A stretch of 64,000 bases of DNA from Bacteroidales bacterium (GCA_045130235.1 JBGUPJ010000036.1:24142-88141), one strand, 5' to 3'; counted from the first letter of the stretch, positions 13,884 through 62,092 are shown. Notes: a model not told the origin generated them from the letters alone. Numbers and translations: made by a program.

Positions 13884-15149
13884 ATGCTGAAAAAAATCCT
13901 CCTTTTGATGGCGATTTTTTCGGGATGTTTATGCCAGATTTTGGCACAATCCACCCTTTCTAATGAAGCGAAATACGACACGCTACGGAATCGTTTACGC
14001 ACTGAATTTCTGTATTATACAGGCAATGGGATGGAACGTGGAACGTCGTTGCTGATGGAAAGAAAATATCAATCGAATCGAGGTCTTACGGGGTTGTGGG
14101 CTGACGCAGTGTGGTGGCAAGGACATTATTTGGCACTGTTGGCCACAGAATATGCGCGACTGCAACGGGATGGAAAGCCTACCGAAGCCACGTTGGAAGA
14201 GTTACGGTGTGCTGTCCAGGTGTATGAGAGGCTCGACTTGGAAGCTGAGTCATGTTGGGGATGCGACACTATCCAAAAGTGCAACGGCTTCTATATTCGC
14301 GACGATATCAACCGTGACGATACCAGCCGTTTCAATCTGAACTGGCTGGTTAGCGACTACAGCAACCACTGCGGTCATCTCAACACGACGGGCAACGCCC
14401 CATCACAAGACCAAGCATGGGCCAGCTATTTGGGATTTGCATTGGTGCAAAAACTCGTGGACGACTCATCACTATGCCAAAAAGTGGCAGAGATTAGTGA
14501 AAAAATGATTACCGCCATGCAGTACAAAACAGGAAATCAAACCGTCTGGGCGATTGTCAATCCTGTGAATGGCATAGAGATACAGCCGCAATCAGACATC
14601 GCATGGTTGGCGTATGCGCACGCCACGATAGGTGACTTACTGAGTGGTCATCCCGTTAGCTCCCAGAGAGCAAAAAAGGGGAGGAGTACTTGGAATATGG
14701 TGCAAAGCATCATGCTGGCGGCGAAAAACGGAAATTTCCGATGGTATGGCGTTTTAGCCATGTCAACCGTGATGAACGAGGGAGGAGCGAGCGGAAACTG
14801 TTATGAATGGTTGGTGCGCACCTGTGAGAAAATTGCACAAAAACGTCCTGATTTACAACAAGATATTATATTCCCACACCTCCCACTCATCCATTTAATA
14901 CTATATGGGAAAGAGGGAAAAGAGTTGCTACCCCGCTCGTCGTACGATTCCTATCTCAATAGTGCGCCGATTGACGGGTGTATCACCCATTATATCAATG
15001 GAAAAACGATCAGAAACACCCCTCCCTGGCATAGCGTATCGCTGTTTTGTCCGTGGCACCTCACGGAAACAGGTCAGGTGAATATGGTGGACTATCTGCT
15101 GCTTTACAATTCGGTGGAATTGGTTTATGGTTCAAAATCAGAAAATTAA
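13884..15149 (+). CDS. exported hypothetical protein
   Basis: Signal peptide MLKKILLLMAIFSGCLCQILAQS (possibly a lipobox). 421 aa, visibly more AT-rich than the flanking genes. No family recognised. Confidence 0.6.
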   Translation: MLKKILLLMAIFSGCLCQILAQSTLSNEAKYDTLRNRLRTEFLYYTGNGMERGTSLLMERKYQSNRGLTGLWADAVWWQGHYLALLATEYARLQRDGKPTEATLEELRCAVQVYERLDLEAESCWGCDTIQKCNGFYIRDDINRDDTSRFNLNWLVSDYSNHCGHLNTTGNAPSQDQAWASYLGFALVQKLVDDSSLCQKVAEISEKMITAMQYKTGNQTVWAIVNPVNGIEIQPQSDIAWLAYAHATIGDLLSGHPVSSQRAKKGRSTWNMVQSIMLAAKNGNFRWYGVLAMSTVMNEGGASGNCYEWLVRTCEKIAQKRPDLQQDIIFPHLPLIHLILYGKEGKELLPRSSYDSYLNSAPIDGCITHYINGKTIRNTPPWHSVSLFCPWHLTETGQVNMVDYLLLYNSVELVYGSKSEN

Positions 15150-15160
15150 AAAATAAAAAT

Positions 15161-15772
15161 ATGAAAATCATCTGTGTAGGAAGAAATTACTTGCCCCATA
15201 TCAAAGAGCTGGGGCATAAAGTCCCCGAAAAACCGACCCTGTTTCTGAAGCCCGACTCATCGGTCATTACCCGCAACCGTCCGTTTTTTCTGCCCGACTT
15301 CTCGCAACAGATTGAGTATGAGGTGGAGCTCCTGGTTCGCATCGACAAGGTGGGAAAATACATCCAGGAAAAATTCGCCCACACTTACTATCATGAGATT
15401 GGTTTGGGCATTGATTTCACGGCGCGGGATCTGCAAAAAAATTGCATAGAGGAAGGCAATCCGTGGGAAATCGCGAAGGCTTTTGATGGATCGGCCATTA
15501 TTAGTCAATTTATTGAAAAAGAGAAATTTGCAGACCTTAACAATATCAATTTTCACCTCAATTTAAATGGCAATACTGTGCAGAGCGGCAACAGTGGCGA
15601 GATGCTCTTTTCCATCGACCAGATCATCTCCTACGCCTCGCAATTTTTCACATTGAAAACGGGCGACATCATCTTCACCGGCACGCCGAAAGGGGTGGGG
15701 AAAGTGGCCATCAACGACCTGTTAGAGGGGTGGATTGAGGATCGCAGAATGTTGAATTTCAGGGTGAAATAG
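15161..15772 (+). CDS. fumarylacetoacetate hydrolase (FAH) family protein
   Basis: Start trimmed to MKIICVGRNYLPHIKELGHKVPEKPTLFLKP. E.E..V and GD.I.TGTP.GVG motifs are present. Confidence 0.8.
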   Translation: MKIICVGRNYLPHIKELGHKVPEKPTLFLKPDSSVITRNRPFFLPDFSQQIEYEVELLVRIDKVGKYIQEKFAHTYYHEIGLGIDFTARDLQKNCIEEGNPWEIAKAFDGSAIISQFIEKEKFADLNNINFHLNLNGNTVQSGNSGEMLFSIDQIISYASQFFTLKTGDIIFTGTPKGVGKVAINDLLEGWIEDRRMLNFRVK

Positions 15773-15784
15773 CCTTACCGTATT

Positions 15785-16849
15785 CTAAACCACCCTGCTG
15801 TACCCGCCGCTTCTCTTGCTGCCGCTGTGGGTAATCTGTCCATGCCGCCTGAGTTCGGAGAGGCAGCGTTCCACGGTGCTCAGCGAGAAGTCCGTTCCGG
15901 CCACGATGTCCGCCGTATTGCAGTTCGGATGGGCTTCGATGTAAGATAGCACCTCCCTGACCTTTCCCTCAGCGGCAGATGCCGGTTTACGCCTGGCAGT
16001 GGTGGAAGTTGGAGTCTCCGGGATTTTATTTTCGTCTAAAACAACCTCCTTCTGCGAAAGGATTTCGGAAATTCTTTCAGCCACTTCCGCCTGCGTGCGG
16101 GCCTCCAATGGGAAGGTGGTGGGCACCTCCTCCCACGGCATCTGCTTCATCATCACCCTGTTATCTTTGCACGACTGGATATGCTGGAAAGGCACCAGCA
16201 AGGTGGTTGTGATGCGGATGAAATCCTCCTCGCCAAACAGCTGCTCCAGATGCTTCATGGAACCCAACCGCGTGTATTTTTCATTTTGCACGGTGTAGAT
16301 TGTGGTGAAATTGCGTTGCTGCTCACAGTAGAAAATGTCATCCATGGTCAACAGCTGGATGTTGCTGTCCTTGTCGGCGACATCCAGCATGCGGACCCGC
16401 TCGTACACGATCTTGGTCTCGTCCTCCAACGACTGTTGGTAATTTTTACGATCCCTGAACAAAAACGGGAAGAAATTCAAAGCGAGATTCCGTCCAATGA
16501 CCTCAAACTGATGGGAGGCGAAAAACTCGAAATATCCCACCAGTTTAATAGCATTGGCATGGCGCGATACAATAAAACGGTAGGCAAGAGCCGTCTCCAC
16601 AACGCCCACCACGATAGCACTGAGCACCACAACCGCCCAATACACTTGCGGATATTTGGGATAAAGCTTGGGATAAAGCACCAAGTAATTGAAATACAAT
16701 GAGCCTAACAACAGAATGCCCGAAATGGCTTCCTTGACAAAACCGCCCGAGAATGGGTGCAAAATAAGGTTGCGGGCAAAAAACCAAAGCACTACTGCAC
16801 TAAACAGGACATTGAGCAAAACGATGGCAATTTTCTTCGAATGTTTCAT
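15785..16849 (-). CDS. membrane-anchored LytTR-domain regulator with an extra C-terminal winged-helix domain (paralog 1)
   Basis: Start trimmed to MKHSKKIAIVLLN (the -7 box at 16874-16881 overlaps the track start). About 4 TM helices. LytTR-like core IQLLTMDDIFYCEQQRNFTTIYTV..KYTRLGSMKHLEQL..FIRITT. C-terminal wHTH REVLSYIEAHPNCNTADIVAGTDFSLSTVERCLSELRRHGQITHSGSKRSGGYSRVV. Confidence 0.7.
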   Translation of the reverse strand: MKHSKKIAIVLLNVLFSAVVLWFFARNLILHPFSGGFVKEAISGILLLGSLYFNYLVLYPKLYPKYPQVYWAVVVLSAIVVGVVETALAYRFIVSRHANAIKLVGYFEFFASHQFEVIGRNLALNFFPFLFRDRKNYQQSLEDETKIVYERVRMLDVADKDSNIQLLTMDDIFYCEQQRNFTTIYTVQNEKYTRLGSMKHLEQLFGEEDFIRITTTLLVPFQHIQSCKDNRVMMKQMPWEEVPTTFPLEARTQAEVAERISEILSQKEVVLDENKIPETPTSTTARRKPASAAEGKVREVLSYIEAHPNCNTADIVAGTDFSLSTVERCLSELRRHGQITHSGSKRSGGYSRVV

Positions 16850-16873
16850 AAAGGCAGGATGTATATACGGCAG

Positions 16874-16881
16874 CAAAAATA
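16874..16881 (-). promoter_or_regulatory. -7 box TATTTTTG for LytTR paralog 1
   Basis: Reverse complement of CAAAAATA, 25 nt upstream of the ATG at 16849. Same spacing as in paralog 2. Confidence 0.5.
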
Positions 16882-16916
16882 CTCAATTCTTTCCAAACAA
16901 TCTTCCCCAAATGGGT

Positions 16917-17079
16917 TTATCCCTTCACTCATCTTCATTTATTCCTTCATTAGCCTTCTTAATTATATTTTTATAAAAATTTGATTATCAAAATATTATA
17001 AATCCATACAGCATTTTCATTTGAACCTTCCCGTCACATTTTCGTGGTGAGGGTTCACATTTTGGGTGTGAAGGGATAA
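16917..17079. promoter_or_regulatory. mirror-symmetric repeat sites in divergent promoter region 1 (candidate LytTR binding sites)
   Basis: On the left, TTATCCCTTCAC (16917-16928) and the degenerate TTATTCCTTCAT lie 22 bp apart. On the right is a 21-bp tandem repeat TCACATTTTCGTGGTGAGGGT / TCACATTTTGGGTGTGAAGGG (17034-17075) ending GTGAAGGGATAA (17068-17079), the exact reverse complement of the left site. Confidence 0.55.
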
Positions 17080-17097
17080 AATTTCATCAAATGAATG

Positions 17098-17105
17098 TAT
17101 TTTTG
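17098..17105 (+). promoter_or_regulatory. -7 box TATTTTTG for the small lipoprotein gene
   Basis: 19 bp downstream of the repeat sites and 43 nt upstream of the ATG at 17148. Confidence 0.5.
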
Positions 17106-17147: not shown

Positions 17148-17348
17148 ATGAAAAAGTTATTGGTTATTTTCGCTTGCGTTGCCCTTGCTGGCGCATTCAC
17201 TTCATGTGACAAGAAATGCCACTGCAAACAATGGGTTGGTGGTGTTTCTGCTGCTCACGTCTTCGAACCCCAAGACGACATGAAATGCTCGGATTACAAC
17301 ACCGTTGCAGAAGTCAATGGCGTAAAAACCGGCATTGAATGCAAGTAA
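17148..17348 (+). CDS. small Cys-rich lipoprotein (66 aa)
   Basis: Lipobox signal peptide MKKLLVIFACVALAGAFTSC. Mature part CDKKCHCK...KCSDY...KTGIECK. Paralog of the gene at 25255-25470. Confidence 0.7.
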   Translation: MKKLLVIFACVALAGAFTSCDKKCHCKQWVGGVSAAHVFEPQDDMKCSDYNTVAEVNGVKTGIECK

Positions 17349-17671: not shown

Positions 17672-18739
17672 TCACACCCTGCTGTACCCGCCGCTCTTCT
17701 TGCTGCCGGTGTACTGGATTGCCCCTCGTTTCTTGAGCTCAGCGAGACAGCGCTCCACGGTGCTCAGCGAGAAGTCCGTTTCGGCCATGATGTCCGCCGT
17801 GTTGCAGTTGGGATGGGCTTCGATGTAGGAAAGTACCTCCCTGACCTTCTCTTCAGCGGGCAATGCCGGTTTCCGCCTGGCGGTGGAGGAAGTGGGAGCC
17901 TCCTGGATTTTATTTTCGTCCAAAACAACCTCCCTCTGCGAAAGGACTTTAGCAATCTTTTCGGCCGCCTCTGCCTGCATTCGGGCTTCCAACGGTAAGG
18001 TAGTGGGAACCCTTTGCCACGGCATCTGCCTCATCATCACCAAGTTGTCTTTACACGAATGAATGTACCGAAACGGCACCAGCAGGTTGGTCGTGATGCG
18101 GACGAACTCCTCTTCGCCGAGCAGTTGCTCCAGATGTTTCATGGAACCCAAGCGCGTATAAGTCTTATTCTTCACCGTATGAATCGTGGTGAAATTCCGT
18201 TGCTGTTCGCAGTAAAATATGTCGTCAATGGTCAATAGCTTGATATTGCTCTCCTTGTCGGTGACATCAATTTTCCGGACTTCTTGGTAAACCACCTGCA
18301 CCTCTTTCTCCAACGATTGTCGCAACTGCTGACGCTCTCTGAACAGATAAGGGAAAAAATTCAATGCAAGGTTACGACCAATGGTAAAGTACAAAATCGT
18401 TGAAAAAAAATTATAGTAGCCGATATGCTGGATAAACTGTGGATTCAGTGAAACAATAAAGGGATATGCAATAGCAAGATCAGCCATACCAACCACAATA
18501 GCAAGGATAATCACAGCGACCCAGTATATAAAGTACGAATATTTTTTGTAAATCCTTGGATACAGCAGAAAGTAATTGGCATACAAAGAACCCAACAACA
18601 GAAGTGCGGAGAGGGCCTCTTTGAGAAAACTGCCGGCGTATGGTCGCAAAACTGAATTTTGGGTAAAGAGCCAAATTACAGTGGCACAGAACAGGATATT
18701 CAGCAAAATGATGACAATTGTTTTCAGGTATTTTTTCAT
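17672..18739 (-). CDS. membrane-anchored LytTR-domain regulator with an extra C-terminal winged-helix domain (paralog 2)
   Basis: Start trimmed to MKKYLKTIVIILLN. Same architecture as 15785-16849. The C-terminal two-thirds are near-identical at protein level (IKLLTIDDIFYCEQQRNFTTIHTV...GSKKSGGYSRV). Confidence 0.7.
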   Translation of the reverse strand: MKKYLKTIVIILLNILFCATVIWLFTQNSVLRPYAGSFLKEALSALLLLGSLYANYFLLYPRIYKKYSYFIYWVAVIILAIVVGMADLAIAYPFIVSLNPQFIQHIGYYNFFSTILYFTIGRNLALNFFPYLFRERQQLRQSLEKEVQVVYQEVRKIDVTDKESNIKLLTIDDIFYCEQQRNFTTIHTVKNKTYTRLGSMKHLEQLLGEEEFVRITTNLLVPFRYIHSCKDNLVMMRQMPWQRVPTTLPLEARMQAEAAEKIAKVLSQREVVLDENKIQEAPTSSTARRKPALPAEEKVREVLSYIEAHPNCNTADIMAETDFSLSTVERCLAELKKRGAIQYTGSKKSGGYSRV

Positions 18740-18763
18740 TGAAGCAATATTTGAATGAGGACG

Positions 18764-18771
18764 CAAAGATA
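18764..18771 (-). promoter_or_regulatory. -7 box TATCTTTG for LytTR paralog 2
   Basis: Reverse complement of CAAAGATA, 25 nt upstream of the ATG at 18739. Confidence 0.5.
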
Positions 18772-18807
18772 CTCAAATCCCTTACAACATTTTCACAAAA
18801 CACCGTT

Positions 18808-18973
18808 TTATCCCTTCACAAATCTACATTTATCCCCTCACAAACCCGTTTAAAATAAATTTTTATAATATATTGATTATTAGTATGTTATCACACCCAT
18901 ACAGAGTATTTATTTTAATCTTTATAAAAAAATTTTTCCTGTGAGGGTTCACATTTTGGGTGTGAAGGGATAA
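18808..18973. promoter_or_regulatory. mirror-symmetric repeat sites in divergent promoter region 2
   Basis: TTATCCCTTCAC (18808-18819) and TTTATCCCCTCAC (18829-18841) sit on the left. GTGAGGG (18941-18947) and GTGAAGGGATAA (18962-18973) sit on the right. 34 nt (GTGAGGGTTCACATTTTGGGTGTGAAGGGATAAA) are identical to copy 1. Confidence 0.55.
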
Positions 18974-19044
18974 ATTTTGCACAAAATGATTGTAATTTTG
19001 TTGCTGAGAATCGCAATGAAGTATATTCATCAAGAAAATAATCG

Positions 19045-19052
19045 TACCTTTG
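19045..19052 (+). promoter_or_regulatory. -7 box TACCTTTG inside a 21-nt cassette GAAAATAATCGTACCTTTGCA (19034-19054)
   Basis: 29 nt upstream of the ATG at 19081. The same 21-mer recurs at 20612-20632. A second candidate box, TAATTTTG, lies at 18993-19000. Confidence 0.5.
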
Positions 19053-19080
19053 CAGATGTTAAATTTTAAATAAAAACACT

Positions 19081-20592
19081 ATGATTACTATTAAAGCTTT
19101 TTATGATCTGCTGGATTGCGGAGAAGGTACAGTGGTTGAATTCAAAACATCGAAAGGTGGGTTTCCCAATTCGTTTTGGGCCACCTTTTCGGCATTTGCA
19201 AATACAGATGGCGGAATAATTGTGCTCGGGGTAAAAGAGAAAGGCAAACAGGCTATTGTGGATGGCTTGACAAAAGCAGAAGTCGTAGTCTTAAAAAAAC
19301 AGTTTTGGGACATGGCCCACAACAAACAGAAGGTAAGCCTACCTCTGTTGAGAGATGATGAGGCTCACGTGGAGGAGATTCCGGGCGAGGGTTGGGTGCT
19401 GGTGTGCGAAGTCCCTAGGGCGAGTTACGACCAGCGACCAATATTTCTAAATGGGCAACCCTACGGCAACACCTATAAAAGAAGACATGAAGGTGACTAT
19501 TGTTGTACCGATGACGAAGTGCGGCAGATGTTTTCAGATGCCAACCTAAAGAACAATTCTGCAGATGCACGAATTCTGAAAGGTTATTCGATGGAGGACA
19601 TTGATCTGGTAACATTACACAAATATCGGAAAGCTTACGACAATCGGCATGAAAATCATCCATGGTCTGAACTTTCAGATATGGATTTTTTGAAAAAAGT
19701 AGAGGCTTGGCGTCAAGACCGCGAAAAAGGGGAAGAGGGTTTCACAGTGGCAGGCATCATGATGTTCGGAAAGACGCAAAGCGTGACAGATCAAAGCTGT
19801 ATGCCGTGGTTCTTTCCCGACTATAGAGAACATCTGAGCATGATAGAGGGGGAGCGATGGAGCGACAGAATTTATCCTGATGGAACATGGGAGGTTAATT
19901 TGTACCAATTTTTCTCACGAGTATATCAGAAACTTTCGTTACTGTTGCCCAAACCATTTCGTTTGGCAGATGATGGCTTAACTCGTTTGGAATTTACGCC
20001 TGCCCATATTGCTATACGTGAGGCTTTGGCCAATTCTTTAATTCATGCGCAGCACAATTCAATGGGGAACATAGTGGTGGACGGTTGGATAAACCGTATC
20101 GTAATCAGCAATCCAGGGAGTATGCTGGTGAGCATTAACGAGTTCTATGAAGGACAACACAGTGTTTGTCGCAATCCACTGATTCAAAAGATGTTTGTGT
20201 TGATTGGTGTAGGAGAAAAGGCTGGGAGTGGTGCAGACGTAATAGTAAAAGGTTGGGAAAAGCAGAAATGGATGAAACCCACAATCAGGCAGTGCGAAGA
20301 GCCGGAAAGAGTGGAAATGGAACTGCGAATTGGAGTGGAAGAGAATCGTAATGGCGAATTAAATGGTCAATTAAATGGTCAATTAAATGGTCAATTAAAC
20401 GAGAGCCAAAAAGAAACGTTAGAGTTTATCAGTAAGCACGTTGGCTTTAACACAACAAAAATTGCAAAAACACTTAACAAGCCTTTTCGGACTATTGTCA
20501 AGCATATTAATGTCTTGATAGAAGCAGGATTGATAGAGCGGCGCGGAAGCAAAAAAACGGGTGGGTATTACATTGTTGAAACAAAGAATTAA
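19081..20592 (+). CDS. AlbA_2 (Schlafen-like) DNA-binding domain + ATPase-like domain + C-terminal wHTH protein ('RecG-like' putative transcriptional regulator family)
   Basis: N-terminal VEFKTSKGGFPNSFWATFSAFANTDGGIIVLGV is the AlbA_2 signature. C-terminal wHTH reads ...TIVKHINVLIEAGLIERRGSKKTGGYYIV. The linker contains NGELNGQLNGQLNGQLN. The gene is noticeably more AT-rich than the backbone genes. Confidence 0.7.
   Translation: MITIKAFYDLLDCGEGTVVEFKTSKGGFPNSFWATFSAFANTDGGIIVLGVKEKGKQAIVDGLTKAEVVVLKKQFWDMAHNKQKVSLPLLRDDEAHVEEIPGEGWVLVCEVPRASYDQRPIFLNGQPYGNTYKRRHEGDYCCTDDEVRQMFSDANLKNNSADARILKGYSMEDIDLVTLHKYRKAYDNRHENHPWSELSDMDFLKKVEAWRQDREKGEEGFTVAGIMMFGKTQSVTDQSCMPWFFPDYREHLSMIEGERWSDRIYPDGTWEVNLYQFFSRVYQKLSLLLPKPFRLADDGLTRLEFTPAHIAIREALANSLIHAQHNSMGNIVVDGWINRIVISNPGSMLVSINEFYEGQHSVCRNPLIQKMFVLIGVGEKAGSGADVIVKGWEKQKWMKPTIRQCEEPERVEMELRIGVEENRNGELNGQLNGQLNGQLNESQKETLEFISKHVGFNTTKIAKTLNKPFRTIVKHINVLIEAGLIERRGSKKTGGYYIVETKN
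20350..20397 (+). repeat. in-frame 12-bp tandem repeat x4 (AATGG(C/T)(G/C)AATTA)
   Basis: Encodes the NGEL-NGQL-NGQL-NGQL linker of the AlbA_2 protein; three units are identical. Confidence 0.9.
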
Positions 20593-20622
20593 CGGCGTTA
20601 TTGCCTTTTTAGAAAATAATCG

Positions 20623-20630
20623 TACCTTTG
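20623..20630 (+). promoter_or_regulatory. -7 box TACCTTTG inside the second copy of GAAAATAATCGTACCTTTGCA (20612-20632)
   Basis: 21 nt upstream of the ATG at 20651. The cassette is identical to the one before 19081. Confidence 0.5.
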
Positions 20631-20650
20631 CAACCAATATTTTTTCAGCC

Positions 20651-21157
20651 ATGAAACATGGGAAAGCCACCTGTAAAATTTTGAAAGAGATCCGTCGGGA
20701 TATTGCCGCCCAAAACAACATTCCGCTGGAGGAACACGAATGCACCTATGAAGGCGACTGCCGCGGCACCTGTCCGTACTGCGAATCGAAAGTACAGTAC
20801 CTGGAACGGGAGCTACAGAAGCGGAGTCTGATGGGCAAAGCGGTCATCACCACCGGCATCGTGCTTGGCGGAATGCTGATGAGCGGATGTCACTCCTCCA
20901 CACCCACTTCGCCAGAAGCACCCACACCCACCTCGTCTGAAACCATTCTCAATCATAATGAACCCCCTGAAACCTCCGACAGCATTCCTAGACAAGGCGG
21001 AATTTTTGATTATGATGACGAAGGAATTATTGAGACAGAGTGGGTATACGATAGGAATCAGGATGATATAGTTAAATGTGTATTGGGTGAAGTGGAGATA
21101 GTACCCTCCACTCCGCAGTTACCCGAGAACGACTCTGTAGTTTCCGATACCCTTTAA
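20651..21157 (+). CDS. Cys-rich single-pass membrane protein associated with a radical-SAM enzyme
   Basis: Start trimmed to MKHGKATCKILKEIRRDIAAQNNIPLEEHECTYEGDCRGTCPYCESKVQYLERELQKR (C-x5-C-x3-C-x2-C). A TM segment AVITTGIVLGGMLMSGC follows, then a Pro/Thr/Ser linker and an acidic C-terminal domain. It ends 3 nt before the radical-SAM gene. Confidence 0.6.
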   Translation: MKHGKATCKILKEIRRDIAAQNNIPLEEHECTYEGDCRGTCPYCESKVQYLERELQKRSLMGKAVITTGIVLGGMLMSGCHSSTPTSPEAPTPTSSETILNHNEPPETSDSIPRQGGIFDYDDEGIIETEWVYDRNQDDIVKCVLGEVEIVPSTPQLPENDSVVSDTL

Positions 21158-21160
21158 GCC

Positions 21161-21790
21161 ATGACCAACTCTGCACCCTTCATCGGCATTATGCGACACC
21201 GCATCGGCATCGACGGCGAGGGGGTGACTACGCTGGCGGCCTTCCACGGCTGTCCGCTGCACTGCCATTACTGTCTGAACCCCTCCTGTCTCGGTTCGGC
21301 GGAGCGGTTGCGCCGCTTGACACCGGAGGAGCTTTACGAGGAGGTGCGCATCGACCAACTCTACTTTCTGGCCACTGGCGGCGGCGTGTGCTTCGGCGGC
21401 GGCGAGCCGCTGCTGCGCCCTGATTTTATCATCCGCTTCCGCGAGTTGTGCGGTCCCGACTGGCAGCTCACCCTTGAAACCTCCCTCAACGTGCCGGAAG
21501 AAAACCTGCAAGCGGTGCTGCCTCATGTGAATGCCTTGATCGTGGACATCAAAGACCTGCATCCCGACATCTACCAGCGATACACGGGGCAGCCGATAAC
21601 ACGGCTCCTGCGGAATCTGGAACACCTCGCAGCCCACTTCCCCACCCAGCAGGTGGTGGTGCGCGTGCCGCTCATCCCCGACTACAACACCGATGACGAC
21701 CGGGCGTGGAGCGTGGAGCAGCTGCAAGCTTACGGCTTCACCCGATTCGACCGATTCACCTATCGCACAGACCTCAAAAGCACAAAGTAA
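21161..21790 (+). CDS. small radical-SAM protein of the glycyl-radical-enzyme-activase (PflA/NrdG-like) type
   Basis: GVTTLAAFHGCPLHCHYCLNP (CxxxCxxC) plus the GGGEPLL SAM-binding motif. 209 aa with no ferredoxin insert. No glycyl-radical enzyme lies adjacent. Confidence 0.75.
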   Translation: MTNSAPFIGIMRHRIGIDGEGVTTLAAFHGCPLHCHYCLNPSCLGSAERLRRLTPEELYEEVRIDQLYFLATGGGVCFGGGEPLLRPDFIIRFRELCGPDWQLTLETSLNVPEENLQAVLPHVNALIVDIKDLHPDIYQRYTGQPITRLLRNLEHLAAHFPTQQVVVRVPLIPDYNTDDDRAWSVEQLQAYGFTRFDRFTYRTDLKSTK

Positions 21791-21836
21791 ATTACCTCAA
21801 AAACGCAAAGTAAAATACCTCAAAAACACAAAATAG
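21771..21836 (+). repeat. 23-bp tandem repeat x3 spanning the radical-SAM stop codon
   Basis: ACCTCAAAAGCACAAAGTAAATT / ACCTCAAAAACGCAAAGTAAAAT / ACCTCAAAAACACAAAATAG. The first unit encodes the last codons of the gene. Confidence 0.85.
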
Positions 21837-22014
21837 TGAGGAAGGTGCAAGTCATCTGATTGAACTTAAACGTTTGATACAAGAGCATAACAAGAAAGAG
21901 GAACAAGTCCCCCTCCGTGAGCCTGATTTACTTATCATTCTGACAGGCGGACACATGGCATATACCCGGCCCGATGGAGTGAAAATCATACCCTTGGCCA
22001 CGTTGAGACAGTAG
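21814..22014 (+). pseudogene. possible 3' gene remnant (start-less open frame)
   Basis: The open frame has no Met until near its end. It reads ...EEGASHLIELKRLIQEHNKKEEQVPLREPDLLIILTGGHMAYTRPDGVKIIPLATLRQ*. It looks like the C-terminus of a longer protein. Family not recognised. Confidence 0.25.
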
Positions 22015-59289: not shown

Positions 59290-59742
59290 TTATTTCTTGC
59301 GGAAACGTTCGGTGATGTCGTGCCACTCTTCGCCATCGCGCTCGTACAAACGCTGGTTGGTGGTCGGGGCCTTCAAACTGCCGCATTCGGGTTTGTAGGG
59401 ACCGGTCTTCACATAGTCGAACCACTCGGCATGCTTGGGCATCTCGTCGCGGCCAGAGTACCAGCCCACCTTCATGTTTCCTTTGGAATGGATGTGTCCG
59501 GCCAGCTTTTCCACCTCCGGCTTCTCGCCGTCGCCGCCCATCAAACAGATACAGGTAGCCAAGCCCTTGTAGCGGGCCATCAGCAAATCTACCACCTCGG
59601 GAGTGAGCTCCTCGCCTTTGTCCTCCCACAAGTGCGGACTGTGACAGTTCTTGCAGTGGTTGGGACAGTTGGTGATGTTGACAGCGAGGGTGACTTCTCC
59701 GGGAATCTCTTGAAAAACGATGTCGTAATTATAAAACTTCAT
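59290..59742 (-). CDS. nrdG: anaerobic ribonucleoside-triphosphate reductase activating protein
   Basis: Start trimmed to MKFYNYDIVFQEIPGEVTLAVNITNCPNHCKNCHSPHLW (CxxxCxxC). It overlaps the nrdD stop by 14 nt. Confidence 0.85.
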   Translation of the reverse strand: MKFYNYDIVFQEIPGEVTLAVNITNCPNHCKNCHSPHLWEDKGEELTPEVVDLLMARYKGLATCICLMGGDGEKPEVEKLAGHIHSKGNMKVGWYSGRDEMPKHAEWFDYVKTGPYKPECGSLKAPTTNQRLYERDGEEWHDITERFRKK

Positions 59743-61831
59743 GGTTGTTCTTGGCATAATAACGACGATGTTCTTCTTCCTGACGAGCCAGCGAGAAATT
59801 GCTGACACGCTTCATATAGCCGATGACACGAGTCATGTAGTCGATGTCCGTGCTATGGCACACGGGACACTCTTTGAGGTAGCGTTTATCAATATGTCCA
59901 CATTTGTTGCAGATGGTATTCGGGATGTTGAAGGTGAAGTAGTTGCATCCCTCCTGAGCCGCCACACGCAGCAGCTGGCGGTATTGTTCTTTGCTGAGGT
60001 GCTCTTCCAAATTGAGGTGCAGCGCCGAACCGCCGGTGAGGTGCGTGATGTACTTACGACCATGGAGACGGAACTTGTCGAGAATGTTAATCTCTTTATC
60101 TTCAACAATATAGAAATAACTATTATAACAATCGCGGGTCACCACGTAACCGTCTTCGCGGTCCCACTTGGCGTGCTTCACACCCACATTCTCAGCGGGA
60201 ATCATCTCGCAATTGAACATGAGGTCTTTGCTCTTATAGCGTTTGTTGTAATCTTCAATCATTCCCAAGATCTCCTCCACGAAATGCTGATACTTCTCAT
60301 TGTCGTTGATGGGAATCTTGAGGAATTCGGCGGCCTCCACCAGTCCGTTGATACCGATGGTGAGGTACTGGCGGTTGATGGCAATATAGCCGGCGTCGAA
60401 GAGCGGAAGCATTCCCTTTTTCAACAAATACTTAAGGTTCTCATTATAACAGATTTGCACCTTATGGGTCAGGTCCACCATCTGTTCAAGGAACTCCATA
60501 TAGGGGATGTTCTGCTTGCAGGCGTACTGGATGCAGCGGTTGAGGTTGATGGTGAGCACACTCTTGGAGCCGGTGGAGACGCCGCCAGCGCCCAGCGTGT
60601 AGCTGAAGCCATTGTCCTGAATCTCGTTGCGGAGGCGGCAGCAGCTGCTCAATGAGTCGGCGTTGTCGCTGAGGTAGGTGAAGAAGGAGTGCCCTTGGGC
60701 ATACATCTCGGCGGTGAAGTCGCCGTACTCCTGGTCGAGCACGTCGCCGTCTTTCGAGAGCAGCGCCATGGTTTCCACGGGGAAGGTGAGCATGGTGCGG
60801 GTGCGCTCCTTGTTGAACCAACGCATGAACCGTTTCTGGAGCCAGTTGAGAGAATCCCAGTCGGGACGGCTGCCGTCGGGGAAGACGAAGTCGCCGAAGA
60901 GGCTCTGGAAGTAGAACTTGTCGTAGTAGGCGATATTCCAGAACACCGACTGATAGTTACGGGCGCCGGAGGGCTGGTTGATAGAATAGACCACCTGCTG
61001 GAAGCAGTCGGTAATAACCTTATCGATGGTACGTTTTTTGAGGGAGAGGTCCACCACTTCGTCGGCACGCTTGTAGTAGTCGGTGCCGTACTCTTGACCG
61101 ATGAAGTAGTTCATGTACATCAGGAACTCGGGGGTGGCGCAGGCGCCGCTGAGCATGCTGGATACCATGAACACCATGTTGATGAAGCCGCCGCAGAACG
61201 ACTTGAGGTTGGTAGGACGGGAGGCATTGCCGCCGATGCTCTGGGTGCCGCCGAGCAGCCACGGGTACATGGTGATGCTGGCGCAGTAGTTGGCGATGCT
61301 GGTCTCGTCGTTTTTATAGATAAAATGATTGTTGAGATAATAGAGATACTTGTCGGACAGCTCTTTGCCATACACCTCCTTGATGCGGTCGCACAGCATA
61401 CGGCGGTTGAGGCGGATGAAGCCCGACTTAGGAAGCTCGCCGATGAGCGTGGCGATGTTCTTGCGCTCCACGTTGGCGTTGGCGTCGTACTTGCTGCCGG
61501 TGGCCGCATTCTGGGCGTTGCAATAGTTGATGAGGAAATCGAGTTTCTCCTTCACCTCGCGGTCTTCGTAATGCTTCTGGCGGTATAGGATGAATGCCTT
61601 GGCCACCTCGTAGTAGCGCTCAGCCATCAGCGAGCGCTCCACCTGGTTCTGGATTTCCTCTTCATGGATGCCGTCGTAGATGTTGAGGCGGCTGAGGATG
61701 TTAATCATCGACTCCTGGGTGGCAAAGCTCCCTACGGAGATGAAGGCCTTGGTAATGGCGCTTCGGATTTTTTCAATCGAGAACGGCTCCCTCTTTCCGT
61801 CTCGTTTGATAATGTGAACTTCTTCTATCAT
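59729..61831 (-). CDS. nrdD: anaerobic ribonucleoside-triphosphate reductase (class III)
   Basis: Start trimmed to MIEEVHIIKRDGKREPFSIEKIRSAI (ATP-cone). C-terminal Zn-ribbon CNKCGH...CPVCHS and the glycyl-radical region TRVIGYMKRV are present. The track start at 61981 would run through the riboswitch. Confidence 0.92.
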   Translation of the reverse strand: MIEEVHIIKRDGKREPFSIEKIRSAITKAFISVGSFATQESMINILSRLNIYDGIHEEEIQNQVERSLMAERYYEVAKAFILYRQKHYEDREVKEKLDFLINYCNAQNAATGSKYDANANVERKNIATLIGELPKSGFIRLNRRMLCDRIKEVYGKELSDKYLYYLNNHFIYKNDETSIANYCASITMYPWLLGGTQSIGGNASRPTNLKSFCGGFINMVFMVSSMLSGACATPEFLMYMNYFIGQEYGTDYYKRADEVVDLSLKKRTIDKVITDCFQQVVYSINQPSGARNYQSVFWNIAYYDKFYFQSLFGDFVFPDGSRPDWDSLNWLQKRFMRWFNKERTRTMLTFPVETMALLSKDGDVLDQEYGDFTAEMYAQGHSFFTYLSDNADSLSSCCRLRNEIQDNGFSYTLGAGGVSTGSKSVLTINLNRCIQYACKQNIPYMEFLEQMVDLTHKVQICYNENLKYLLKKGMLPLFDAGYIAINRQYLTIGINGLVEAAEFLKIPINDNEKYQHFVEEILGMIEDYNKRYKSKDLMFNCEMIPAENVGVKHAKWDREDGYVVTRDCYNSYFYIVEDKEINILDKFRLHGRKYITHLTGGSALHLNLEEHLSKEQYRQLLRVAAQEGCNYFTFNIPNTICNKCGHIDKRYLKECPVCHSTDIDYMTRVIGYMKRVSNFSLARQEEEHRRYYAKNNHEVL

Positions 61832-61924
61832 AAGGTTAATGGTTAATTTCCTAAAGAACAACAACTTGCGGGGAGCATTCACAGAATCCTCACGGACATG
61901 TATGCTTTTATCCCGAAAGCTACA

Positions 61925-62092
61925 TTTGCAGATGCGGGCAGGTCTTCTGGCTTGTTCAGCTACCCGCCGCCTTCCCGACAATCGGAGTTTTTGTCAGTGG
62001 CGCAGTGGCGAGGAGCGGAGGATGAACTTTACAGCTACGGGAATAGCTCCTGATTTTCACAGGCTTCCCTTTTAATCCGTGGAACCCGAATC
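61925..62092 (-). promoter_or_regulatory. cobalamin (B12) riboswitch aptamer upstream of nrdDG
   Basis: The minus strand reads GGTTCCACGG..TTAAAAGGGAAGCCTGTGAAAATCAGGAGCTATTCCCGTAGCTGTAAAG...GCCACTG...CGGGAAGGCGG...AAGCCAGAAGACCTGCCC. This includes the conserved core and the B12 box (plus-strand 61936-51). A minus-strand -7 box TATTTTTG lies at 62099-62106. Confidence 0.85.

Follow-up and report, generated by a model that had tools for sequence, protein, structure and literature searches.

PflA-type activases are compact radical S-adenosylmethionine (SAM) enzymes known to act on glycyl-radical enzymes (GREs). In the radical-SAM maturation of peptides made on the ribosome and modified after translation (RiPPs) of the SCIFF/ranthipeptide and sactipeptide kinds, one enzyme serves Cys-rich precursors that combine a conserved N-terminus with a variable remainder. 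Here we describe a two-gene system that resembles each of these in part, encoded in a 64,000-nucleotide stretch of a Bacteroidales bacterium genome (GCA_045130235.1 JBGUPJ010000036.1:24142-88141; hereafter the window, in which coordinates are counted unless another contig or locus is named). The system pairs a PflA-like radical-SAM enzyme of 209 amino acids (aa) (21161-21790, plus strand) with a 168-aa protein that we call its client (20651-21157, plus strand). The client, an open reading frame with 46 close homologues, is made up of an N-terminal five-Cys domain (the N-domain, residues 1-62; 20651-20836, plus strand), a predicted lipoprotein-type signal peptide, a Pro/Thr/Ser linker and an acidic tail. 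We consider it likely that the enzyme acts on or through the N-domain, which in this family is fused ahead of the clients’ signal peptide. Systems in which a radical-SAM enzyme has a protein partner of its own are already known; what is new is the partner domain, which is undescribed, its unprecedented position before a signal peptide, and the use of a PflA-type scaffold without a GRE.

The enzyme shares its single-domain fold and approximate size with PflA (E. coli 3C8F/3CB8; TIGR02493), the TIGR02494 activases and NrdG (TIGR02491/02495). Like PflA it has an N-terminal CX3CX2C motif, GGGE and the SAM-binding positions, and neither of the two carries an auxiliary-cluster domain. The radical-SAM motif GCPLHCHYCLNP occupies residues 30-41, with CX3CX2C at codons 31-38 (21251-21274); GCPLHCHYC (residues 30-38) and GGGEP (residues 79-83) are both invariant across the family. 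An earlier note on this DNA had remarked on the activase-like cluster motif and the small size of the protein, and we recovered both. Pfam assigned Radical_SAM (PF04055, 3e-19) and Fer4_12, and the top NCBIfam matches were GRE activases, every one of them under its curated cut-off: TIGR02494 scored 124 bits (cut-off 174), the PflA model TIGR02493 89 bits (cut-off 232) and the NrdG models 20-41 bits (cut-offs 126-131). The TIGR02494 alignment skips the ferredoxin insert of that family, which the enzyme lacks. Neither Pfam nor NCBIfam found a SPASM or twitch domain in the protein, which ends with the radical-SAM core; models of SPASM/twitch maturases matched the core only, at 17-24 bits, and the only Cys residues conserved in the family are C31, C35, C38 and C97.

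Sequence identity to PflA is ~23-30%, and E. coli PflA 3C8F is the closest solved structure by sequence (E 2e-14, residues 17-184 on 15-182). An AlphaFold2 (AF2) model of the enzyme, built with 49 homologues, reached a predicted local distance difference test score (pLDDT) of 90.9, and a Foldseek search with this model returned 3C8F at the top (E 1.8e-15, TM-score 0.84, root-mean-square deviation 2.2 Å, 205 columns), with QueE as the runner-up (TM-score 0.69). Among 186 family members, the cluster Cys residues, GGGE, E106/T107, D129/K131 and R168 are invariant or nearly so. Because these conserved core positions align with those of PflA, the SAM-binding core is judged intact and the enzyme looks catalytically competent. 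It departs from PflA in having DGEGVT for DGPGIR, a nearly invariant RHR patch at residues 12-14, and N-domain clients in place of a GRE partner. In a maximum-likelihood tree with few outgroup sequences, 23 family members, including three from Clostridia-like contigs, formed a single clade on a long stem with 100/100 support, apart from the true PflA, NrdG and TIGR02494-type activase of carrier genomes. The clustering with bona fide PflA or NrdG that the earlier note had held up as the contrary outcome is not what the tree gives.

Two further features of the enzyme gene came to light. Three tandem copies of a 23-nt unit, ACCTCAAAAGCACAAAGTAAATT (21771-21839), begin in its last codons and extend beyond its stop. 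On the opposite strand of this GC-rich gene runs a shadow open reading frame (21119-21727, minus strand) with a counterpart in the related locus L105 (778-1434, minus strand). The public annotation of L105 calls this shadow frame in place of the radical-SAM gene, and the enzyme may therefore be under-counted in annotation-based surveys.

The client opens with an ATG at 20651 and ends with a stop codon at 21157, 3 nt before the ATG of the enzyme gene; its length and this gap were both read exactly in the earlier note. Pfam, NCBIfam and PADLOC placed it in no family. A TIGRFAMs family named in the note, ‘radical SAM-associated putative lipoprotein’, did not apply: TIGR04133 (rSAM_w_lipo) resembles this system in being a Bacteroidota radical-SAM protein named for an association with a lipoprotein, but it is a 350-position radical-SAM model that matches neither protein at the locus, and its best score in the window’s genome is 32 bits, on contig C21, against a cut-off of 425. 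A full-text literature search found no description of the radical-SAM/N-domain pair. The N-domain is without a name, a structure or a literature that we could find, and the pair is undescribed.

Homologues of the client share only its first ~62 residues. In three alignments, C8, C31, C37, C41, C44, G35, G39, T40 and P42 are invariant; the C-x5-C-x3-C-x2-C cluster noticed earlier is C31-x5-C37-x3-C41-x2-C44, and C8 joins it as a fifth conserved Cys. A profile of the domain, searched against 1.8 billion representatives clustered at 50% identity, gathered 2,937 clusters, and among the 150 best matches listed the domain starts at the called N-terminus or at most ~27 residues from it. AF2 modelled the N-domain with moderate confidence (pLDDT 72.5) as a helical hairpin, residues 3-21 and 42-60, joined by the Cys loop. 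A profile search of the PDB with the N-domain gave nothing significant (best E 0.13), and Foldseek found no fold match for the model (best E 3.2). A search of curated libraries with the domain alone (E ≤ 10) brought up nothing but weak zinc-ribbon matches, scattered over 4 of 14 members (best E 0.0025). The domain is probably metal-binding. We also considered a kinship with the C-terminus of NrdD and set it aside: by eye, both have a CPxC knuckle, but the N-domain is without RVxGY. Seven paralogues from one locus differ in their N-domain codons by 10-23 synonymous and 0-10 non-synonymous changes, and their tails diverge. Because the synonymous differences outnumber the non-synonymous ones, the conservation of the domain reflects selection on the protein and not recent gene conversion.

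Directly behind the N-domain lies a signal-peptide-like segment (20837-20890, plus strand). K63-AVITTGIVLGGMLM-SG-C80 fits an n-region (K63), an h-region (AVITTGIVLGGMLM) and a lipobox of the form [LVIM][ASTG][GAS]C (MSG↓C, with Cys80 at 20888-20890). Across 139 clients of fetched loci and 148 cluster representatives, the segment ends in either a lipobox Cys or AxA↓Q; in Bacteroidota, signal-peptidase-I sites typically have the latter form, AxA followed by Gln (the ‘Q-rule’). A regular expression found the lipobox in 104 of the former set and in 78 of the latter. AF2 predicts no confident helix in the hydrophobic stretch (pLDDT <50, residues 70-86). For the stretch that the earlier note took for a transmembrane helix, the better reading is the hydrophobic core of a putative cleavable lipoprotein signal peptide with its lipobox at C80. 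The Cys-rich part would then be a cytoplasmic, pre-signal-peptide domain of exported clients and not the head of a stable membrane protein. In this respect the clients are unlike ordinary lipoprotein precursors, whose signal peptide stands at the extreme N-terminus; here a 62-residue domain precedes it.

The mature parts of the clients vary. Pfam found TonB_C (PF03544) in seven of ten related clients and CarbopepD_reg_2 in two, one of which also has TonB_C. Four of the five clients of the window’s genome show a TonB_C-like C-terminus by inspection rather than by a Pfam scan (FPGG...PxWxPG); Pfam finds no TonB_C in the window’s client, unlike most of its relatives. Most clients thus share with the TonB-family and TonB_C proteins of Bacteroidota a hydrophobic segment, a linker that is acidic or rich in Pro, and TonB_C at the C-terminus, but their segment ends in a lipobox or AxA↓Q and has a 62-residue Cys domain ahead of it.

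A short motif, [LP]xG[DE][VIP] in an acidic context, recurs in the linkers. It is present in 107 of 202 lipobox-type clients, against 13.8 expected in shuffled sequences, and in 10 of 52 clients of the signal-peptidase-I type (2.9 expected); among ordinary predicted lipoproteins of the window’s genome the figure is 5 of 107. The motif is lacking in 129 of 332 clients. The window’s client has one copy, VLGEVEIVP, at 21083-21109. The motif is often repeated within a linker, in clients of Bacteroidales and of Clostridia-like contigs alike.

The enzyme and the N-domain occur together. In a genome collection with one genome per species, at least 512 stretches encode the N-domain, and the 78 best loci are all from Bacteroidales, Duncaniella muris DSM 103720 among them. 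We examined the neighbourhoods of 80 N-domain-encoding loci and found a radical-SAM gene of ~205 codons within a few kb in 65 of them. The commonest layout is a radical-SAM gene followed by 1-7 tandem clients, and client-first and convergent orders were also seen. These 80 loci hold no third conserved gene; the next clusters are shadow frames or lineage-specific synteny. On three more contigs, with Clostridia-like neighbours (an extracytoplasmic function sigma factor with a DUF4367 protein, BlaI and LrgAB), the client overlaps a downstream radical-SAM gene; the non-Bacteroidota carriers (L089-L093, ‘Firmicutes’) are assigned by neighbouring genes and lipobox style only. The neighbourhood comparison suggested in the earlier note has now been run, and the pair is co-conserved beyond the window both by linkage and by phyletic pattern.

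We scored that pattern at three depths. Among 301 genomes drawn evenly from the order, with an enzyme threshold of E ≤ 1e-30, the enzyme and the N-domain were found in the same four (Fisher p=3e-9). Among 81 relatives, 13 had both, one, an 80%-complete metagenome-assembled genome, had the N-domain only, none had the enzyme only and 67 had neither (p=4e-14); both tests ignore shared ancestry. In the window’s genus, 12 of 19 genomes carry the N-domain and 11 of those also carry the radical-SAM gene, a patchy and covarying presence from which it follows that gain or loss of one component goes with that of the other. In genomes G140 and G306 the enzyme is encoded on a different contig from the clients; physical linkage is not required, and the pair persists together when unlinked. 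The window’s genome has one enzyme and five clients (the window’s, C24:27887, C25:64054, C2:2172 and C29:74675). Such counts in draft genomes are lower bounds, as contigs break inside clients. Contigs C2, C22 and C29 of this genome end within near-identical client 5′ regions (promoter, operator-like motif and first codons), and two clients are split.

From these observations we propose a sequence of events. The client would be made in the cytoplasm, where its N-domain would fold as a helical hairpin around the Cys loop. The radical-SAM enzyme would dock on the N-domain and cleave SAM reductively, and the 5′-deoxyadenosyl radical would take one hydrogen from the client, most probably in the invariant Cys/Gly loop, C31...G35-x-C37-x-G39-T-C41-P-x-C44, which we favour over the [LP]xG[DE][VIP] linker motif, a second candidate target. 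After modification the client would be exported by Sec, and signal peptidase II (at Cys80 in the window’s client) or signal peptidase I (at AxA↓Q, in most TonB_C clients) would free the mature protein from the N-domain and signal peptide. In the window’s genome, a single enzyme would serve five clients, one adjacent and four elsewhere. The clients behave like substrates because there are many of them per enzyme, because the shared head is N-terminal and under strong purifying selection, and because a signal-peptide-like segment and a linker motif follow it. More specifically, the PflA-type enzyme may install a radical or radical-derived change in the five-Cys domain, such as a crosslink from Cys to the backbone or else a thiyl or glycyl radical, and this mark may gate or accompany the export of envelope proteins; we regard this fuller version as plausible, if rather short of probable.

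Several points weigh against the proposal that the enzyme acts on the N-domain. The known radical-SAM enzymes that crosslink Cys residues, such as the sactipeptide and ranthipeptide maturases, carry an auxiliary-cluster domain, and this enzyme has none. The loop of the N-domain does not look like the glycyl-radical motif RVxG[FYW]. Instead of being a substrate, the domain could serve as the enzyme’s partner in redox chemistry or docking. Cleavage of the signal peptide is predicted from sequence patterns only, and if the segment stayed on as an anchor, the topology of the TonB_C clients would resemble that of TonB and their head could be a cytoplasmic input domain. The co-occurrence statistics, moreover, count as separate observations carriers of which many belong to one genus.

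These points have to be set against what other explanations would require. One is that the enzyme is a spare or redundant activase for NrdD, pyruvate formate lyase (PFL) or an unrecognised GRE, and that its place beside a Cys-rich protein is incidental. Its best family matches are indeed GRE activases, its fold is PflA-like, JGI labels its homologues ‘pyruvate formate lyase activating enzyme’, and GREs occur in three of the four carrier genomes of the order-level survey. All of its scores nevertheless fall under the curated cut-offs, it forms a separate clade, and its presence tracks the N-domain almost perfectly and not the presence of GREs. No GRE adjoins the gene at 21161-21790. The NrdD of the window (59729-61981, minus strand) has a small NrdG-like radical-SAM gene directly downstream (59290-59808, minus strand), in agreement with the earlier note, and a PF01228 scan of the window’s genome (assembly 86% complete) found no match and no PFL-type GRE. 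In the carrier genomes G132 and G140, PFL is accompanied by a true PflA (299-308 bits); in G132, G140 and G161, NrdD has an adjoining NrdG, and each GRE of these three genomes has its own activase beside it. Since every GRE present is provided for, the radical-SAM enzyme is surplus to all of them. The data support an activase-like enzyme without a GRE to serve, and a spare activase is very improbable.

A different possibility keeps the partnership and moves the target: the N-domain, tethered to the membrane, would be an Fe-S or Zn partner that donates electrons, anchors the enzyme or supplies an auxiliary cluster in trans, and the enzyme, placed in this way at the inner membrane, would act there on something else, for example a lipid, a precursor of the envelope or a passing polypeptide. 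The C-x5-C-x3-C-P pattern weakly resembles a ferredoxin motif minus its second Cys, the zinc-ribbon matches point the same way, as do non-significant ones to DsrB (E 1.1) and RnfB (E 4.1), and the enzyme fits TIGR02494 best yet lacks that family’s ferredoxin insert. Up to seven clients with different mature parts per enzyme, however, fit substrates better than cofactors, the 80 loci offer no other conserved gene to supply a substrate, and if the signal peptide is cleaved the tether would be a signal-peptide remnant only; we think this explanation unlikely. The remaining one overlaps with our proposal in that the N-domain would be a RiPP-style leader and the linker motif the target, modified before Sec export, for example by D-residues or a crosslink. 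One enzyme with many precursors, each a conserved head on a variable tail, is what a RiPP system would look like; the linker motif is enriched ~8-fold over shuffles and ~11-fold over ordinary lipoproteins and is present in the window’s client too; and the basic RHR patch at the enzyme’s N-terminus would, we infer, suit an acidic peptide. The enrichment is weak in the signal-peptidase-I/TonB_C clients, however, more than a third of clients lack the motif, and to our knowledge a 62-residue folded five-Cys leader ahead of a signal peptide has no precedent, which also counts against a leader. The comparison with RiPP systems diverges further: this enzyme has no SPASM, twitch or RRE, the 80 loci hold no dedicated protease or exporter, a Sec-type signal peptide follows the ‘leader’, and the ‘cores’ would be whole envelope proteins of 130-450 aa, mostly TonB_C. 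We regard a leader function directed at the linker as rather unlikely. Action on or through the N-domain itself is the reading that we carry forward.

The pair is preceded by a repeated promoter. A 22-nt repeat is present as copy 1 before an AlbA_2 gene (19033-19054, plus strand) and as copy 2 (20611-20632, plus strand), the core promoter of the client-enzyme pair, of the extended -7 type and 18 nt before the client’s ATG. An exact 21-nt repeat with a -7 box before both genes had been described in the earlier note; the window indeed holds exactly two occurrences of the 21-mer, GAAAATAATCGTACCTTTGCA (19034 and 20612), against none expected from 100 shuffles, its identity extends to 22 nt, and the TACCTTTG box lies at 19045-19052 and 20623-20630. 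The pair’s promoter is similar in relatives L009 and L010 and identical in L011, L105 and L106. In L011 and L106, whose radical-SAM enzymes are 91% and 93% identical to the window’s, there is no AlbA_2 gene at the pair, and a single 22-mer, contiguous with the left flank of copy 1, joins it to the right flank of copy 2. Because of these single-copy sites, the promoter belongs to the pair and the 1,578-bp segment at 19055-20632 (plus strand), which holds the AlbA_2/HATPase_c_4/winged helix-turn-helix (wHTH) gene (19081-20592; Pfam) and one repeat copy, is an insertion with a 22-bp direct repeat at its borders. The duplication claimed earlier therefore holds, but not its direction from the AlbA_2 gene to the pair, as relatives without AlbA_2 keep the pair’s promoter. 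In L105 the 3′ end of AlbA_2 is identical to the window’s at 266 of 267 positions (99.6%), against 86% for the radical-SAM gene, and so points to recent transfer of the AlbA_2 segment rather than ancestral presence.

Could the two copies be independent near-consensus promoters, identical by chance and without shared history? Promoters in the window’s genome follow a strong extended consensus, AAAAAATTTTGTATTTTTGCA (an A/T tract, then GTAnnTTTGCA), many sites of which are fully identical, and the 21-mer fits it. Among 721 promoter-like sites we counted 41 other identical 21-mer pairs and 285 pairs at one mismatch, and a third site, one mismatch away, lies on contig C30. Since identical promoter pairs are so many genome-wide, identity of the 21-mer alone would not prove duplication, and short exact repeats containing TAnnTTTG should not be taken as duplications without comparative evidence. 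Here the relatives that join the outer flanks through one copy, together with the contrast in L105 between the AlbA_2 segment and the flanking radical-SAM gene, make chance identity extremely improbable.

Homologues of the AlbA_2 gene with 89% and 82% identity occur in unrelated contexts, one of them with a similar native promoter and the same leader. We found no flanking repeats at either, and a site-specific mobile element was rejected on that ground; a role as a defence gene was likewise rejected, as PADLOC gave only weak partial matches (pAgo/SIR2-associated and wHTH models). The GC content of the segment is 0.42-0.47, compared with 0.50 for the genome. A 12-nt tandem repeat at 20350-20397 encodes NGQL three times, where a linker connects HATPase_c_4 to wHTH, and is identical in L105. 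No terminator-like site separates AlbA_2 from the client, so that the pair can be driven by read-through as well as by the second copy of the promoter.

In L009 and L010 the unit of promoter, client and radical-SAM gene sits elsewhere, between homologues of window positions 13884-15149 and of the FAA-hydrolase gene (window 15127-15771); L009:4972-6134 corresponds to window 20614-21775. From this other location it follows that the pair moved as a cassette with the 22-mer promoter as its left edge. In three rearrangements of this region the breakpoints fall on repeated regulatory motifs.

Upstream of the insertion lies a putative regulatory element. LytTR-regulated promoters of the AgrA/ComE/PlnC type contain two 9-bp direct repeats, 12 bp apart. 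The same 9+12+9 layout is found here, just upstream of a core promoter and beside divergent LytTR genes, in an operator-like 34-nt motif, GTGAGGGTT-N12-GTGAAGGGA-TAAA (18941-18974, plus strand), which is also conserved in L011. A second -7 box (GTAATTTTG; TAATTTTG at 18993-19000) follows 17 nt after this motif, upstream of repeat copy 1, and motif and box together form a candidate regulated promoter, P1, ahead of the 22-mer. The genome holds seven sites of the 34-nt motif. A GTAnnTTTG box starts 16 nt after five of them, including the window’s other copy (17047-17080, plus strand), and 17 nt after the site at 18941. Two sites precede clients at the ends of contigs C2 and C29, and others precede secreted proteins or lipoproteins; directly behind the copy at 17047-17080 is a gene for a 66-aa Cys-rich lipoprotein-like protein (17148-17348; MKKLLVIFACVALAGAFTSC...) with no family match.

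Two genes for membrane LytTR+wHTH regulators stand beside these motifs: copy A (15785-16876, minus strand; Pfam) and copy B (17672-18766, minus strand; PF04397 1.1e-9, HTH_24), the latter divergent from the motif-bearing intergenic region. They lie in a ~1.89-kb tandem duplication (15785-17100 and 17672-18990) whose units, 71-92% identical, each consist of a LytTR+wHTH gene with the intergenic region upstream of it. In L011 there is only one LytTR gene, which is 97% like copy A; just past the 34-nt motif the sequence of L011 switches to the right flank of copy B, as it would if the two motif copies had recombined. Because of the motif layout and the divergent LytTR genes beside it, the arrangement suggests a LytTR-controlled regulon that would include clients, with copy B as the candidate binder of the motif; the AlbA_2 insertion moved the putative operator away from the pair. 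Compared with AgrA/ComE/PlnC-type regulators, the two LytTR proteins sit in the membrane, lack a receiver domain and carry an additional wHTH at the C-terminus. LytTR homologues adjoin the pair in L011 and L106, and the 80 loci show no conserved LytTR link in other lineages. The LytTR pair and the AlbA_2/ATPase/wHTH neighbour named in the earlier note agree with Pfam, and its idea of a single 15.8-22.0 kb accessory module survives in part: the LytTR link holds through the shared motif in the window’s own lineage and not elsewhere, and the AlbA_2 gene is an unrelated insertion.

The -7 box turned up in one further setting outside the window. Contig C22 (22047-23505) carries a CRISPR-like array of ~20 copies of a 47-nt repeat, GTTGTGAATCGCTTTCAAAAAAATTGTATCTTTGCATGCTAAACAAC, with a period of ~77 nt. 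Every repeat contains a Bacteroidota -7 promoter box, and each spacer may have its own promoter.

At the level of the genome, the window offers a clean case in which a gene cassette, AlbA_2, has entered a promoter and is accompanied by a 22-bp duplication, and it also shows that rearrangement breakpoints fall on repeated regulatory motifs. The pair itself, an enzyme with its partner, is widespread in anaerobes of the gut and rumen, and the N-domain sits on thousands of envelope proteins of these bacteria. The system comprises two genes only and has a cultured carrier, and it is directly testable. If the enzyme modifies pre-proteins, the clients would be a new substrate class for the smallest radical-SAM fold, and their modification would add a step to protein export in Bacteroidales and probably in Clostridia. 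Such a step would be an anaerobiosis-dependent, pre-export processing of proteins of an undescribed kind, and a possible control point for TonB_C envelope proteins in bacteria whose nutrient uptake relies on TonB-dependent systems.

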